Shown piece after piece: positions 11,712 through 18,743 of a DNA stretch of 18,743 bases. The notes below the pieces were generated by a model. It made no database searches. It saw only the letters and a program-made list of their open reading frames with translations, and was not told the DNA's origin. The translations under genes were made by a program, and so were the position numbers. The DNA lies in assembly GCA_043824495.1 (NCBI GenBank), contig JBDRSV010000013.1:1-18743 (forward strand), read 5' to 3'. The stretch's first letter is position 1, and every line of letters starts with the position of its first letter. Source of the stretch: Candidatus Aenigmatarchaeota archaeon. Its GTDB lineage: Archaea > Aenigmatarchaeota > Aenigmatarchaeia > QMZP01.

Positions 11712-14333
11712 ATGAACGTACAAATACTTGATTTGGATTATGTAATTGTGAATGAAAGACCAATAATAAGAATATTTGGTAGAAACGAACAAAACAAATC
11801 TACATGTGTTTTCTATAAAGGTGTTGAACCATTCTTTTACACCACAGGTGACGTCGAAAAAATACTAGGGGACGATCCTCAAATAGTCAGAGTAGAAAAC
11901 GTTAAGAGGAAAGATATTTCTGTAAACAAGGAAATTGATATCAAGAAAGTCACAATAAAAAACCCATCAAAGACACCAGATCTGAGAACAAGGTTGGTAG
12001 AGGCTGGAGCTGATGTTTTTGAAGCTGATATTTTATTCAAATATAGATTCATGGCAGATAATGAATTGAGGGGGAGTAGTTGGATAAGTGTAACTGGAGG
12101 AACCGCTGCTACTGGTACTGTTCTCTCTGAAAATAAAATAGAAGCAAAACAAATAAAACCAATTAAAAAGCCGGAAGAGACTGATTTGAAGTATGCAGCT
12201 TTTGATATTGAGTGTGTTCCTACAAAAGCAGGCGAAATTCCTGATGCAAGAAGTGATCCAATAATCATGATAGCATTTGCGTTCAATAAACCTTACAAAG
12301 GACAGAATAATATTGTTCTATCAACTAGACCCGATCCTGGAGTGACGAGCTTTGCTACAGAAAAAGAAATGCTGGTAGAATTCATTAACATTATCAATAA
12401 TTTCGATGCTGACATTATAACAGGATTTAATGTGAACAATTTCGATATACCATATGTACTTGAAAGAATGAAAAAGAAGGGTGTGAGGCCTGTTTTTGGT
12501 AGATGTGCATCAAAACAGGTTATGGCCAAGAAAATGATGAATAGACACAAAATAATAATTACCGGCCGTGTTATTGTGGATAGTTATGAGCTTGTTAAGA
12601 AAGATTTCTCTTTGAAAAGGTACAATCTGAATACTGTCGCGAAAGAGCTTTTAGGTGAAGAGAAGATTGATGTTAAACATTCTGAAATTGAAAAATTATG
12701 GAACGGCAACCAAGAAGGATACAAAAAACTTATAAAATATAATCTTGTGGACGCTGAGTTGGCTCTAAGATTAGTGATTAAACACAATCTTGTAGACAAA
12801 TATAAAGCTCTTAGTAAAGTGTCTGGTGTACTTTTACAGGACAGCTTGGATAGTGGAGAAAGCACAAGAATTGAAAATTTCTTGTTAAGAGAATTTAACA
12901 AGGAAGGATATATTTTCCCCTCGAAACCATCAGCATCTGAAATAGCCAAACGTGATTCCAGAAAGAAAGTCGAACTAAAGGGCGGGTTTGTCATTGAGCC
13001 GATTAAAGATCTGCATAGCGATGTTGTTGTTCTAGATTTCAAATCAATGTACCCTTCAATTATTATTGGATTCAATATTTGTCCTACCACACTATCAAAA
13101 GAGGGCGACAATCTCATAACAACTCCGGGAGGTGTCACTTTCTTACCGAAGAACGTAAAACAAGGAATTATTCCGCGAATTGTAACTGAGTTAATGAGTA
13201 AAAGACAATCGGCTAAAAGGAGATTAAAAAAGGAAGACGATGTACTGAAGAAGAGGGTATTAGATGCAGAACAGTGGGCTTTGAAGATTATGGCCAATGC
13301 ATTTTACGGGTATCTTGGATATTCCAGAGCTAAAGTGTATAATCTTGATTTAGGAAATGCTATTACTTCTTGTGGTAGAGACATAATACAAAAAACGAAA
13401 CTCGCTATTGAAAATGAATATGGATATACCGTTGTTTACGGGGACACAGATTCTGTTATGGTTAAGCTTAATACAGATGACCTTGAAGAGCTCGGAAAAA
13501 TAGCAAGTAGGATGGCTGCGGAGATCACCAAAAAACTACCAGAATCCATCGAATTGGAATTTGAAAAGATATTCAAGAGGTTTTTACCTCTCACAAAAAA
13601 GAGATATGTTGCCTGGAAATTCGAGCCCAAGGGAGATGGATGGAAAGAAGGGATGGAGATGAAGGGCATAGAAACCGTGAGGAGAGATTGGTGTGAACTT
13701 GTGTCAGAATGTATGACAAATGTAATATCCATCATCCTGAAAAAGGATGATGTTAAAGGCGCTGTGAAGTATTTCAAAAGTATTATTAATGATTTACTTG
13801 AAGGAAGGGTTCCTATAAACAAGTTGGTTATTACGAAAGGCATGAGTAAACCCGTTAAGAGTTACGTAGGAATCCAACCTCATATAGAACTTGTGAAGAA
13901 ACTTCAACAAAGAGGTGAAGCTCCTGGTATAGGTGATAGAATTGGATATGTTATAATTAAGGGAACTGAAATGCTTTCCAAGAGAGCCGAAGATCCTTCA
14001 TATGTAATTGAGAAGGGACTTCAGATAGACTCTAGATATTATATTGAAAATCAACTGCTTCCACCAATAGAAAGAATATTTTCCGGTCTAAAAATTTCCA
14101 AATCAGAACTTCTTGGTGGTGGAAAACAAATGGGAATCTTTGATGCACTCAAGAAACACGAAGAAAAGCAAGTAGACAAAGAGATACCAATAGAACAAGT
14201 GAGAGGATTTATTTGCACCAAATGTAACAAATCCTATTCACGTGTACCATTAGTAGGAGCATGTGAATGTGGAGGCAACATATTATTTTCTTCTGAAAAG
14301 GGTCCGGTAGGAACTGTTTTGGTTAGTAACTAA
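11712..14333 (+). CDS. polB: Family B DNA polymerase (archaeal B3-like) with C-terminal Zn-finger extension
   Basis: Exo I FDIE, Exo II GFNVNNFD, Exo III YNLVD; polymerase motifs DFKSMYPSII, KIMANAFYGY, YGDTDS, TKKRY, KGIETVRRD; PIP-like QMGIFDAL; then CTKC-x12-CEC. Confidence 0.97.
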   Translation: MNVQILDLDYVIVNERPIIRIFGRNEQNKSTCVFYKGVEPFFYTTGDVEKILGDDPQIVRVENVKRKDISVNKEIDIKKVTIKNPSKTPDLRTRLVEAGADVFEADILFKYRFMADNELRGSSWISVTGGTAATGTVLSENKIEAKQIKPIKKPEETDLKYAAFDIECVPTKAGEIPDARSDPIIMIAFAFNKPYKGQNNIVLSTRPDPGVTSFATEKEMLVEFINIINNFDADIITGFNVNNFDIPYVLERMKKKGVRPVFGRCASKQVMAKKMMNRHKIIITGRVIVDSYELVKKDFSLKRYNLNTVAKELLGEEKIDVKHSEIEKLWNGNQEGYKKLIKYNLVDAELALRLVIKHNLVDKYKALSKVSGVLLQDSLDSGESTRIENFLLREFNKEGYIFPSKPSASEIAKRDSRKKVELKGGFVIEPIKDLHSDVVVLDFKSMYPSIIIGFNICPTTLSKEGDNLITTPGGVTFLPKNVKQGIIPRIVTELMSKRQSAKRRLKKEDDVLKKRVLDAEQWALKIMANAFYGYLGYSRAKVYNLDLGNAITSCGRDIIQKTKLAIENEYGYTVVYGDTDSVMVKLNTDDLEELGKIASRMAAEITKKLPESIELEFEKIFKRFLPLTKKRYVAWKFEPKGDGWKEGMEMKGIETVRRDWCELVSECMTNVISIILKKDDVKGAVKYFKSIINDLLEGRVPINKLVITKGMSKPVKSYVGIQPHIELVKKLQQRGEAPGIGDRIGYVIIKGTEMLSKRAEDPSYVIEKGLQIDSRYYIENQLLPPIERIFSGLKISKSELLGGGKQMGIFDALKKHEEKQVDKEIPIEQVRGFICTKCNKSYSRVPLVGACECGGNILFSSEKGPVGTVLVSN

Positions 14334-14767
14334 TTTAAATCTACCACCCCATTCACGTGTATGGATGCAACAGATGCATCATATAGAGGAGATTCTTTTG
14401 ATTATTGTGGGTGGGATCCGGATAATAGAAGATACTCGTGTTTATCTACGAAGAGGCAAAAGAATTCCTGGTAGTGTATAACCCTGGATATTAATCATTT
14501 ACTGACCATGTGAAGTATAACAGTGTTATGTGAATATTTCTGGTTTTTACACACCAAAAAAATGAACTTCATGGCATGCTGATTTCTAGGACACACAATT
14601 CACATCACAATTTACGTGAAGTTCCACTAGAAGGGAGGGGGTATTCCATGTGAAGTGTGGGTCCCTTCACAAATATTCATTTCGGCACACTGCGACACGT
14701 TCCATATGCAACGAGGGGGTGTATTTCACGTTACTGTGTGTGAGCTTCACTGAACCAGTCAATCCAG
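14334..14767. other. Putative replication origin (ORB-containing intergenic region)
   Basis: 433-bp gap between convergent genes with no long ORF. It holds two G-string ORB-like boxes, mini-ORB-like TTCCATGTGAAG (14644-14655) and a weaker inverted TCCA-N11-GGGGT (14346-14365), and lies within a polB/DP1-like/cdc6 cluster. Confidence 0.65.
14621..14720 (+). repeat. Pair of ORB-like direct repeats with G-strings
   Basis: GTTCCACTAGAAGGGAGGGGGT (14621-14642) and GTTCCATATGCAACGAGGGGGT (14699-14720): 16/22 identical, 78-bp period. Resembles the archaeal ORB pattern TTCCA-N3-GAAA...GGGGT. Confidence 0.75.
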
Positions 14768-15973
14768 TTAGATGAATATACCTGAATAAAACATGATTAA
14801 TGGTAACATGAGCACGCCCATACTCATACTACGCTTAACACCGTAAACTATTGGTAAAATACCAATAGCAGTTGAAACGAACAACACCAAAAGACCAATC
14901 GGTCCAGCTAATACCAATGTCATTATTACCAAAAACACTATTATGCTTTTGGTCATCTTAGAGTAATTTATTTTTTCTAAAACTTTTACCATTGGATTCA
15001 AGATCTTCATCAACAAAAGAGACGAAATCCCTGTAGCGAAAAGCGCGACTCCTAGTAAAATTAAGAGATCGGTAAAACCAAAAACTTCGATCAAATTCTC
15101 CACAGCAACAGCAGCTCCACTTCTAGCTCTTGATATAGTGTATAAAGATATTAATGAAAATAAAGCCACCACTGTGTTTATAGTGCCTATTGATATCAAG
15201 AATTCTTGTATGTTATTTTTTCTTGTTATTTGTTGTGTAAGAACAGTTGCCTGAGCAGCCCCAACACCTGGCAACACACCTAAAAACATACCGGAGAAAA
15301 CACCTTTCACAACACCAGAGATTATAATTTTATTTTTAATTCTAGGTAATCGTGTATTCTGCTTTGGTATGTTTGGTTTTTTATTAGCACTAATTACTAG
15401 TGCACTCATACCGAAAAGTCCCGTGAACACCGGAAAAAGAACTATGTGTAAAGGTAATATGTATGCATTCAATGTTAACATTCCTAAGATTCCCGATAAG
15501 AAAAAAATCAAGAGCGCGCACAATTTTTTTGTCCCTCTCTCTGTGAAAACCATCACCACGACAATTCCAATCAAAATTATGTGAATGTAGTTTTGAATAT
15601 TCTGATAAATGAAAGGTATAATCACTAACATTGGGAAGAATAGAATTAATGTTAACAACATCCCTCCAACACCACCCATAACAGTCAAATAAATTGCATG
15701 TATTCCTCTTCCTGTTAGTAGAAGCATGTGGCCAGGAAGTACGGACAGCGCAGTGTCTGCTTCTGGAGCTCCTAAGAACACGCTTGGGACGAAATCGAAT
15801 ATGGTATGTGTTATCGCCATCGCTATAATAACAATTACAATATTATACGGATTCCCAACAACCGCAAACCCCGTCAGTAGAAGTGTTATAGTATTCACGT
15901 GAAGACCTGGAATGAGTCCTGTTAATACACCAAGGGCACACCCTGCAACGGCAAATAATATTATCTCTATCAT
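14768..15973 (-). CDS. Archaeal TctA/DUF112-family membrane protein
   Basis: GLIPGLHVN, FLGAPEADT...LPGH, second-half repeat GVLPGVG; about 11-12 TM segments. No tctB or tctC nearby. Confidence 0.85.
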   Translation of the reverse strand: MIEIILFAVAGCALGVLTGLIPGLHVNTITLLLTGFAVVGNPYNIVIVIIAMAITHTIFDFVPSVFLGAPEADTALSVLPGHMLLLTGRGIHAIYLTVMGGVGGMLLTLILFFPMLVIIPFIYQNIQNYIHIILIGIVVVMVFTERGTKKLCALLIFFLSGILGMLTLNAYILPLHIVLFPVFTGLFGMSALVISANKKPNIPKQNTRLPRIKNKIIISGVVKGVFSGMFLGVLPGVGAAQATVLTQQITRKNNIQEFLISIGTINTVVALFSLISLYTISRARSGAAVAVENLIEVFGFTDLLILLGVALFATGISSLLLMKILNPMVKVLEKINYSKMTKSIIVFLVIMTLVLAGPIGLLVLFVSTAIGILPIVYGVKRSMSMGVLMLPLIMFYSGIFI

Positions 15974-16362
15974 CTAAACACTTCTATTATACCCAATCTG
16001 TAGATTATCTCCAACTCCCCACTATTCTCTGGGTATTCACTAATAATACCAGGAGCACACATAGAATTTCCTATATTAATTTCATATGGACTATTTTTAC
16101 TTTCGTTTAGGTGTATTGCGGTTGTGTTAAAAATGACGATTTTCATACTCCCGGTAGAATCTCCCACTGTAAAAAATATATGATTATTGGACACGGTTTT
16201 TGATTCTACTTCTCCGCATATTTTTACCTGTCTCCCAACATCCTCTATTGTTATACTCTCTATACTCATTTGTGTAGACGGTTGATTGACTACTAGAAAT
16301 AAAATCACGAGTCCTAGAACAGAAGAGATTATAGAAAGCATCTTCAAGGATCTGTTGTCCAT
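15970..16362 (-). CDS. Membrane-anchored OB-fold protein
   Basis: N-terminal TM helix, then VKICGEV...HIFFTVGDSTGSMKIVIF (OB-fold D-x-T-G pattern). Its stop overlaps the tctA-like start (ATGA). Confidence 0.8.
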   Translation of the reverse strand: MDNRSLKMLSIISSVLGLVILFLVVNQPSTQMSIESITIEDVGRQVKICGEVESKTVSNNHIFFTVGDSTGSMKIVIFNTTAIHLNESKNSPYEINIGNSMCAPGIISEYPENSGELEIIYRLGIIEVFR

Positions 16363-16385: not shown

Positions 16386-17291
16386 TTAAATAAATTCAAC
16401 TTTCCAGCTACTTAGATCAACTGTGACAGTTTTTGAAGTAGAAATTATATTCACACCCTTATAGATCTTGTTCCAATCTTGATTTTGAACCAACCAGAAT
16501 ATATGAGGAGCGTTCTCGATCAGAATCTGATTGTTTATTTTATTGTTGGTCGTGATCAATCTCCTTTTTAGGAAAAGTGTGGCTTCTTCTTCGTTAACAT
16601 TCTCATCTGGTTTGTAAACAATTATTTTCATTTTTGTTCTCCCTTTAGAAACCAGGACTTGTGAATATTTAGAATCTATTTTGTGTTCATTTTCTTCCTT
16701 CACGTCCTCGTCCGTGAAGGTTAATATGGTGTCTGCCTTTACCGATTTCTTCTCTGCAGTGAGTCCTAATATAATATTCATAGTATCTGTTTTTTGGGGC
16801 AGCGGTAAATCCGGTAAGACCATCTTTTTCTGTATTAGTTTGTTTTCTCTAACAATTCCTATTACACCTATCACAGTGTTAGATTCAACTGGATCATTAC
16901 TAACCACTTCTATTTCACCGGTAGGATCATCTATGATAAACCCGTGTGAAGTTTTTTCTTTTATCATTCCTATTATACTAACTTCAGATGATGTGCCTCC
17001 TATTTTGTTTATAGAAGTAGCATCCACTTTCTTCTCCAGGACAGTGTGAATGTTATTATATATGACATTGTAGTAATTTACAACATCTTGAACATCAAGC
17101 TTTGGTTTGATTTCTGGTGTATTTATCTCTATTTTTATTCGTTCTGTTTTATGTTCTTCCGGTTCTGTCACAACAACAGATTTGGTCCTCATGTAACCGC
17201 TTATATTATTCTCGTCTATATTAGTTAGCATGCCAGGGCTCACTAAAACACCCTTTTCCAAAAGTTTCGCTACCACTTCTTTCTTATTCAT
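16386..17291 (-). CDS. Compact, catalytically inactivated homolog of DNA polymerase D small subunit (DP1 / B-subunit-like)
   Basis: DP1-like segments: LLEKGVLVSP, VSIIGMI...IDDPTGEIEV (OB), LPDLP, FLKRRL, ILIENAPHIF, YKGVNII, TVDLSSW. No DxH, GDxxDG, GNHD or GHxH motifs. Begins 1 nt after the cdc6 stop. Confidence 0.75.
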   Translation of the reverse strand: MNKKEVVAKLLEKGVLVSPGMLTNIDENNISGYMRTKSVVVTEPEEHKTERIKIEINTPEIKPKLDVQDVVNYYNVIYNNIHTVLEKKVDATSINKIGGTSSEVSIIGMIKEKTSHGFIIDDPTGEIEVVSNDPVESNTVIGVIGIVRENKLIQKKMVLPDLPLPQKTDTMNIILGLTAEKKSVKADTILTFTDEDVKEENEHKIDSKYSQVLVSKGRTKMKIIVYKPDENVNEEEATLFLKRRLITTNNKINNQILIENAPHIFWLVQNQDWNKIYKGVNIISTSKTVTVDLSSWKVEFI

Positions 17292-17292
17292 A

Positions 17293-18540
17293 TTAGAAAG
17301 TGTTTGCTGATTTTTTCTTTGCGTCTAAGTATAGACCGTCTGTAAGCAAATAATTATCCTTTAAGATTTTCTTGACCTTCTCTTTTAGAGACGATCCTAA
17401 TAAAAACTTTATTTCTCTTGTCCTACCATATCTTCCTTTAGAAATGACTCTAGCATTTATTACACCAAGCATATCAAGCTCTGCAACAAGGTCCGATACC
17501 CTTCTCTGTGTTAAGGACTTTAAACCTCTTGAGTGACATATCTTCTCATATAGAACAAAAACATCACCTGTTTGTATGTTCTTTTCGCCTGCCTCTACGA
17601 GTTTTATTATACTGGCTATAACAGCTTGGCTTTGTTTTGGTTGGAATTTTATAATCTCCACTATCCTGTCCGTGTCAAGCTTTGCTTCCGCCTTATCGAC
17701 TAGCTCGGTTGTCACTTTACTATAATTTTCTCTTTCTGCGAGTTCACCAGCAATTCTAAATAAATCAAGTGCTCTTCTTGCGTCCCCGTGCTCCTGTGCA
17801 GCAAGAGCAGCACATTTGAATATAACAGCATCATCCACAACCCCAGGCACGAACGATACCTTTGCTCTATTAAACAAAATGTCTTGAAGTTGTTTAGCAT
17901 CATATGGTTGGAATATTATCTCTTCTTCTGACAGAGAAGACTTCACTCTAGGATCCAGCCTGTCCGTGAATGTTGTGTCATTTGAAATTCCAATAATAGA
18001 AAGTTTTGTCTTCACGAGGTCCTGATTTATTCTGGTGAGTGTATATAATATATCATCACCGACCTTCTTCACAAGGGCGTCTATCTCATCTAGTACTAGG
18101 ATCACGTTTTTCTCTTGTTCTTCAAGTGCTTCGAAAAATATTTTGTAAACTTCATCTGTCGGCAATCCTGTTGAGGGAACCCTCTTTCCCAGAATTCTTG
18201 ATAATTCTGCTAGCAATCTATATTCTGTGTCAGAAACTTTTTTCATTTTACAGTTGATGAATAAAACCCTTATTTTATCACTTTCTTTCTCTATCTCCGT
18301 CATCACATGTTTTGTACAAACGGACTTTCCTGTTCCAGTAGAACCATAAATAAAAACATTAGATACATTGTCTCCCCTTATTGCGGGCGCAATAATTTTT
18401 GCCAGCTGATTTATATTGTCCTCTCTGTGTGGTATTGTCTCTGGTATATATCGCTCTGTAAGAACGTCTTTGTTCTTGAATACTCGGTTTTCTTTTTTTG
18501 AATAACCACTAAAAATGTCTTTTAGAGTTTGTTGTACCAT
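17293..18540 (-). CDS. cdc6: Orc1/Cdc6 replication initiator
   Basis: IPHRE, Walker A GSTGTGKS, Walker B VLDEID, GISND, DPRVKSSL, HGDARRALD, and winged-helix LDMLGVI...GRYGRT. Confidence 0.97.
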   Translation of the reverse strand: MVQQTLKDIFSGYSKKENRVFKNKDVLTERYIPETIPHREDNINQLAKIIAPAIRGDNVSNVFIYGSTGTGKSVCTKHVMTEIEKESDKIRVLFINCKMKKVSDTEYRLLAELSRILGKRVPSTGLPTDEVYKIFFEALEEQEKNVILVLDEIDALVKKVGDDILYTLTRINQDLVKTKLSIIGISNDTTFTDRLDPRVKSSLSEEEIIFQPYDAKQLQDILFNRAKVSFVPGVVDDAVIFKCAALAAQEHGDARRALDLFRIAGELAERENYSKVTTELVDKAEAKLDTDRIVEIIKFQPKQSQAVIASIIKLVEAGEKNIQTGDVFVLYEKICHSRGLKSLTQRRVSDLVAELDMLGVINARVISKGRYGRTREIKFLLGSSLKEKVKKILKDNYLLTDGLYLDAKKKSANTF

Positions 18541-18562: not shown

Positions 18563-18586
18563 TTTAAATACACTTCTTGTGGAAAT
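18563..18586 (-). promoter_or_regulatory. Putative cdc6 TATA box with adjacent mini-ORB-like site
   Basis: Minus-strand TATTTAAA (18570-18563) lies 23-30 nt upstream of the ATG, consistent with leaderless geometry. TTCCACAAGAAG (minus strand, within 18572-18586) sits immediately upstream. Confidence 0.5.
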
Positions 18587-18589
18587 TTT

Positions 18590-18720
18590 AAAAACTAAAT
18601 ATATAACACTGTTATAACACTTCTTTCATAAAAGTGTACTCACACACCAAACTTGCACATGGAACTTTTTATTATTAAAAAAATTTCATTTGCAAAAACT
18701 AAATTATAACATTGTTATAA
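18590..18720. repeat. 27/28-bp direct repeat, each copy containing the palindrome TATAACA-N-TGTTATA
   Basis: AAAAACTAAATATATAACACTGTTATAA (18590-18617) and AAAAACTAAATTATAACATTGTTATAA (18694-18720). Confidence 0.85.
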
Positions 18721-18743
18721 TAAATATTATTATCTTATAAATT

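Follow-up and report, generated by a model that had tools for sequence, protein, structure and literature searches.

What is left for DP1, the small subunit of PolD, to do once the catalytic motifs of its exonuclease have disappeared? The question is raised by a 301-aa open reading frame next to orc1/cdc6 in an Aenigmatarchaeota metagenome-assembled genome (MAG; 1.01 Mb, 29 contigs, 80% complete). The window analysed here is the entire 18.7-kb contig that carries this gene. An earlier note had read the encoded protein, here called P0001, as a DP1 homolog that has lost all five phosphoesterase motifs and is selected for a structural role. The evidence set out below makes it very probable that P0001 is an Aenigmatarchaeota DP1 whose exonuclease has been lost and which has been kept, without catalysis of its own, as an accessory (B-type) subunit to the replicative family-B polymerase, PolB.

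Table 1. Genes and protein domains of the locus, with positions in the window
Feature	Position	Strand	Evidence
Family-B DNA polymerase, 873 aa (P0006)	11712..14333	+	PF00136 E 2e-114; PF03104 E 5e-40
P0006 C-terminal Cys4 zinc finger, DP2 Zn-III-like (C835, C838, C851, C853)	14214..14270	+	TIGR00354
Reduced, motif-less DP1 homolog, 301 aa (P0001)	16386..17291	-	Open reading frame; NF003118; PDB profile; AF2 model
P0001 calcineurin-like phosphoesterase remnant without metal-binding motif, residues 169-301	16389..16787	-	Alignment A2; model; omega
P0001 long helix and OB fold, residues 51-168	16788..17141	-	NF003118 and PDB DP1 profile matches
P0001 N-terminal helical domain, DP1N-like, residues 1-36	17184..17291	-	Three short helices in model
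Orc1/Cdc6	17293..18540	-	NF001625 E 9e-152, exceeds cut-off; 1 nt upstream of DP1 homolog

A DP1 homolog directly downstream of orc1/cdc6

The frame of P0001 runs exactly between its listed ends with zero internal stops, so that its description in the earlier note as intact holds for both the open reading frame and its translation. The start codon lies 1 nt past the cdc6 stop, and the two genes are likely a single operon; they are adjacent in all 14 related loci that have both. Downstream of the P0001 gene follow two further genes, one for an OB protein of 130 aa that is anchored in the membrane and one for a TctA-type transporter, and the PolB gene is convergent to the genes on the P0001 side. 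PolB, the inactive DP1 and Orc1/Cdc6 all lie inside 7 kb, and related Aenigmatarchaeota loci share the order PolB, TctA, (small OB protein), DP1 homolog, Cdc6.

The 130-aa protein (15970-16362, minus strand) combines a transmembrane helix at its N-terminus with an OB fold (PF01336, E 5e-9), and the latter gives a weak match to the OB region of DP1 (NF003118, E 4e-4). In some of the relatives (four loci), its gene separates that of the DP1 homolog from that of TctA.

The NCBIfam model for the PolD small subunit, NF003118, matched residues 23-168 of P0001 (E 1.2e-13) with a score of 50.9 bits, far under the curated equivalog cut-off of 445. A Pfam scan of P0001 gave sub-threshold OB matches only and no PF04042 (DNA_pol_E_B) domain, and in a relative, P0005, the match to PF04042 was likewise sub-threshold. 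As a word-indexed homolog search returned a single relative, an exhaustive HMMER search was needed; run against a library of 1.84 billion proteins, it identified 253 representative relatives, and the full-length proteins among the best 150 of these 253 matches measure ~270-370 aa. A profile of 68 P0001 relatives (A1) retrieved solved DP1 chains from the PDB at E 3e-18 over two stretches, namely the OB region and a C-terminal segment in which P0001 residues 232-298 align with DP1 430-501. Within this second stretch LKxRH, IExxPD, the GHVH position and YxGV are all in register with DP1.

The AlphaFold2 model of P0001 (pLDDT 92.9, pTM 0.80) led to the same proteins. Its significant Foldseek matches were DP1 and eukaryotic B-subunits, and nothing else. 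In VIA-align it superposed on P. abyssi DP1 192-613 with a Z of 19.1 (rmsd 3.1 Å, 245 residues aligned), followed by eukaryotic B-subunits (Z 14-17) and, down to Z ~10, OB-only proteins. P0001 thus has the helix-preceded OB fold of the DP1/B-subunit superfamily and its calcineurin-like C-terminus, the latter reduced to ~130 aa, while scoring below the curated thresholds. The family model, the PDB profile and the structural comparison together bear out the assignment to DP1 made in the earlier note.

All five phosphoesterase motifs are lost

An alignment (A2) that sets P0001 and related sequences beside DP1s of the phylum with intact motifs confirmed that the frame at 16386-17291 on the minus strand encodes a DP1 homolog in which every catalytic motif has gone. 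Motif I (SDLH in active DP1) reads LGLT, motif II (GDxxDG) is deleted, motif III (GNHD) reads TDED, motif IV (YHG) reads YKP and motif V (GHLH) reads WLVQ. This largely agrees with an alignment that had been made by eye. The strings that it placed at motif positions are present in P0001 (IILGLT at 173-178, TILTFT at 188-193, IIVYKP at 223-228 and IFWLVQ at 264-269), as are the landmarks that it listed as retained (LKRR at 241-244, IENAPHIF at 258-265, YKGV at 277-280 and VDL at 291-293), and its conclusion that all five motifs are erased stands. Its placement of motif II does not: in A2, TILTFT is the beta-strand preceding motif III, and motif II has been deleted and not substituted.

Overall, P0001 is ~170 residues short of a full DP1. 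With the five phosphoesterase motifs absent and no co-occurring DP2 found, it does not qualify as the active proofreading subunit of a PolD. The remnant might still hydrolyse a substrate or bind metal through non-canonical residues, given that its calcineurin-like core is retained under selection and that motifs I, II, IV and V persist in ~390-aa relatives from other families. Yet none of the five motif positions has a conserved column of His, Asp or Asn in the alignment of the 300-aa family, and P0001 has five histidines only, all of them away from these positions. Near-invariant within the remnant are R244, P262, K278 and G279, and we regard residual activity as very improbable.

The remnant keeps a calcineurin-like fold

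Folded alone, the C-terminal 136 residues of P0001 gave a pLDDT of 94.2. In an unbiased VIA comparison of this remnant with 48,161 chains, the top match was p50 of human Pol delta (Z 10.7, with an alignment covering 132 of 136 residues). The match to DP1 had a Z of 9.0, others included Vps29, YfcE-type phosphoesterases and Mre11, and all 50 of the best matches listed have a calcineurin-like fold. Foldseek with the remnant alone returned no match at E ≤ 0.001, and its weak matches were all calcineurin-like. The earlier note had named a generic OB fold without any calcineurin-like scaffold as the finding that would count against it; what the remnant retrieves are calcineurin-like folds.

At the other end of the protein, G14 and P19 of the N-terminal helical domain are nearly invariant across full, intermediate and reduced forms of DP1.

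The reduced frame is under selection

Intact orthologs of P0001 (mostly ~290-330 aa, within a broader range of ~270-370 aa; no stops) were found in 40 of the 41 genomes of the order, spanning 34 genera; the single genome without one is 71% complete and also lacks the PolB finger. P0001 evolves fast, with 26-38% identity to relatives, compared with 52-67% for Cdc6 and 53-59% for PolB from the same loci. A maximum-likelihood codon model (GY94) fitted to 20 orthologs gave an omega of 0.066 over the whole protein, 0.039 over the N-terminal part and OB fold, and 0.088 over the C-terminal remnant; because the tree is long (~93 substitutions per codon site) and synonymous sites are saturated, these values are approximate, although far from neutrality. 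Pairwise dN/dS was dropped for the same saturation, the closest pair of orthologs being 51% identical.

The loss of all catalytic motifs, the ~170 missing residues and the fast divergence are also what one would see in a pseudogene undergoing decay, or in an artefact of annotation with a frame that is open by chance. We give such a reading next to no credence. Each of the 20 orthologous frames runs without interruption from start to stop codon despite pairwise identities of at most 51%, the 253 representative clusters fall in the same length class, omega is far under 1 in both halves of the protein, and the AF2 models are confident for P0001 and for its remnant alike. Selection for a structural role, as opposed to pseudogenisation, is thus supported by the distribution of the gene across the order, by omega, by the retained fold and by the failure to find a second intact DP1, or a DP2, in the genome at 80% completeness. 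The neutral decay that the earlier note had set against its own proposal is not what the orthologs display, whether over the whole frame or, within the same approximation, in the remnant.

PolB carries a zinc finger of the DP2 type

P0006 is the sole PolB found in the genome. Its motifs ExoI, ExoII and ExoIII, A, B and C, and KKRY are intact, so that, judged by these motifs, it should be able to polymerise and proofread on its own. The four cysteines of its C-terminal finger (pattern CxxC...CxC, residues 835-853) are invariant in 29 orthologs, and positions 1014-1049 of the DP2 model TIGR00354 match residues 833-867 (window 14208-14312) at E 2.9e-6.

In the genome of this organism, TIGR00354 matched the PolB C-terminus only and no DP2. 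Nor did that genome, at 80% completeness, contain PF04042, PF03833 (the DP2 N-terminal domain) or a second DP1, the last of these a check that the earlier note had called for. True DP2 was found in none of the 41 genomes of the order. As the MAG is 80% complete, a DP2 may have been missed in it, and it is the order- and phylum-wide pattern that carries the argument.

Complex prediction for P0001 and the PolB tail gave a score of 0.65, compared with 0.00 for the best of three controls, and passed a mark that 58 of 80 solved complexes attained, as did 2 of 110 mismatched pairs; as similar DP1/B-subunit complexes have already been solved, this pass may reflect likeness to them and not independent evidence. 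The runs agreed in at least 90% of contacts, with a partner pLDDT of at least 61. The predicted interface is the groove between helix, OB fold and remnant: most contacts to the zinc finger come from the helix and OB region (residues 61-78, 109-126 and 137-138), and residues 250-252 complete it. P0006 is therefore presumed to be the catalytic partner of P0001, and from the model we infer that the two would bind physically in this organism.

P0001 might, alternatively, have left the polymerase and serve, on its own or together with Orc1/Cdc6, as an OB-fold factor that binds DNA or is associated with the origin. Its start codon 1 nt after the cdc6 stop, the conserved adjacency of the two genes, the OB fold as the best-conserved part of the protein (omega 0.039) and the presence of ORB-like boxes 2 kb away would all fit such a role. 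The adjacency of cdc6 and DP1, however, is an ancient archaeal arrangement that holds for active PolD too (as at Pyrococcus oriC), and is therefore no sign of a new function. Moreover, the PolB finger and the P0001 homolog occur together in 40 of the 41 genomes, the remaining one having neither, and the predicted interface is the same helix/OB/phosphoesterase (PDE) groove that Zn-III of DP2 uses in PolD. Published yeast two-hybrid data for the phylum also argue for a place in the polymerase, and we consider a departure from it improbable.

If P0001 is instead an accessory subunit of PolB, as we think, the Mre11-like 3'-5' exonuclease of DP1 would have been wholly lost and the large subunit DP2 would have gone from the lineage, its DP1-docking Zn-III finger now residing at the C-terminus of PolB. 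Because PolB would supply the proofreading exonuclease itself, the active site of DP1 would no longer have been needed, and roughly half of its phosphoesterase domain could then have been deleted. What is left is an N-terminal helical domain, the helix and OB fold that would receive the finger, and a minimal beta-sandwich. The N-terminal domain of Thermococcus DP1 (DP1N) binds Gins51C (Oki et al. 2021, PMC9023282); by analogy we infer a GINS-binding role for residues 1-36 of P0001, which would probably tether the polymerase to the GINS/CMG helicase.

DP1 occurs in three size tiers across the phylum

A sample of 201 genomes was used to place the locus within the phylum. True DP2 was present in all eight genomes of one family, f10; outside it, matches to DP2 were fragments only, on short contigs of two genomes, and are probably binning contaminants. 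Motif-intact, full-length DP1 scoring above threshold was also restricted to f10 among the 201 genomes, and the five f10 genomes whose PolB was examined encode an ordinary 772-783-aa enzyme without a C-terminal domain (CTD). A PolB bearing the CTD finger turned up in 187 of the 201.

DP1 falls into three tiers of size. Full active DP1 (472-512 aa) stands alongside DP2 and CTD-less PolB in the one family. An intermediate tier of 369-407 aa (~390 aa; L071-L082) occurs in families f13, f14, f19 and f28, in which no DP2 was found; it keeps motifs I, II, IV and V (SDLH, GDxxD, the motif IV His and GHxH), and in motif III GNMD or GExD replaces GNHD, with loss of the catalytic His. These forms may retain metal binding and may represent natural intermediates of inactivation, to judge from their motifs. 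In the third tier, of ~300 aa, every motif is erased and half of the phosphoesterase domain is deleted. The 300-aa forms lie on one side of a branch with a support of 80 in a quick tree, from which we claim no order of events.

Zn-III docks in the groove between the OB fold and PDE of DP1, and the DP2 helical bundle touches the PDE loops (Raia et al. 2019). The loops deleted here are those that bind the helical bundle of the DP2 CTD in PolD, and the PolB CTD has no such bundle, so that the two sides of the interface have apparently shrunk together. It is quite possible, if somewhat short of probable, that the tiers form a natural reduction series of a polymerase small subunit in which both sides of the interface were reduced together, defining a minimal functional core. 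Such a DP1/B-subunit core would comprise the N-terminal domain, the OB fold and a sandwich of ~130 aa.

Two of the genomes contain unusual frames. In G159 (family f10; contig C21, 7689-10205), a DP1 of the full-length type appears as two matches inside a single open frame of 858 aa, a pattern suggestive of an intein or some other insertion. The DP2 frames of G159 and G044 reach 1466 and 1605 aa, lengths that point to inteins as well.

Relation to described polymerases

In Kazlauskas et al. 2020 (NAR, PMC7544198), Aenigmarchaeota are reported mostly to lack DP2 and to have a group of inactive DP1s; their B6-aenigma1 PolBs carry a single motif resembling DP2 Zn-III, and PolB is proposed to have replaced DP2. 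A 2025 study in Nat Ecol Evol (PMC12680538) reports, from yeast two-hybrid and AlphaFold3, that Aenigmatarchaeota DP1 binds PolB-DP2CTD, and calls the Aenigmatarchaeota CTD degenerate and shorter. QMZY01, which that study discusses, is the assembly that yielded one of the related PolB loci analysed here (L054). The 'Aenigma_GB_GCA_002789635-like' DP1 and its B6-aenigma1 PolB share with our locus the phylum, an inactive DP1, the lack of DP2 and one Zn-III-like Cys4; P0001 is an ortholog in another MAG, with no essential difference from this published system. The pairing of inactive DP1 with CTD-bearing PolB, without DP2, is a real feature of Aenigmatarchaeota and already published, and the value of the P0001 case is therefore confirmatory. 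The available text of both papers contains no description of a halved phosphoesterase domain or of three size tiers, and no Aenigma sequences are listed in the legend of Supplementary Fig. S15 of PMC7544198. Measured against this text, the extent of phosphoesterase reduction, the three-tier series and the joint reduction of PDE loops and CTD bundle may be new to the literature.

P0001 shares with canonical DP1 (P. abyssi 5IHE/6HMF, T. kodakarensis 6KNB) the N-terminal helical domain, the OB fold, the calcineurin-like C-terminus, the LKxRH, IExxPD and YKGV landmarks and the position after cdc6. It differs in the loss of the five motifs, in the deletion of ~170 residues and in having no DP2 partner. 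The eukaryotic B-subunits (Pol delta p50/Pol31, Pol epsilon p59/Dpb2 and Pol alpha p70) combine an inactive phosphoesterase with an OB fold, as P0001 does, and bind a catalytic subunit of family B by its cysteine-rich CTD, as predicted for P0001 and PolB. Their inactive phosphoesterase domain, however, is full-size (~250-270 residues, compared with ~130 in P0001), and the CTD of their catalytic subunits has two metal modules and a helical bundle, whereas P0006 has one finger without a bundle.

Models for the origin of the eukaryotic replicative polymerases centre on the transition from DP1 to B-subunit; in them, a family-B catalytic core inherits the C-terminal docking module of DP2 together with a DP1 that has been inactivated. 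This state has been reported from two archaeal lineages, one of them Aenigmatarchaeota, and the 18.7-kb window is a clean example of it. The detail added here is how far the phosphoesterase domain can shrink while selection still keeps the remnant.

Non-coding stretches of the contig

Rfam and tRNA scans of the 18.7-kb window found nothing, and Rfam gave no RNA family in the 434 bp of non-coding DNA between the convergent PolB and TctA genes (14334-14767), a large gap for so compact a genome. This stretch contains two ORB-like boxes (GTTCCA...GGGGGT) at 14621-14642 and 14699-14720 and an exact 11-nt repeat, and ORB-like boxes also occur downstream of PolB in two relatives. By its sequence features, 14334-14767 may be a replication origin, ~2.5 kb from cdc6.

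At the contig end, and cut by it, an AT-rich stretch upstream of cdc6 (18585-18724) holds a 33-nt direct repeat and a near-perfect 16-nt inverted repeat, TATAACAxTGTTATAA, 86 nt apart. These repeats are consistent with a promoter/operator or an origin element, either of which this stretch may be.
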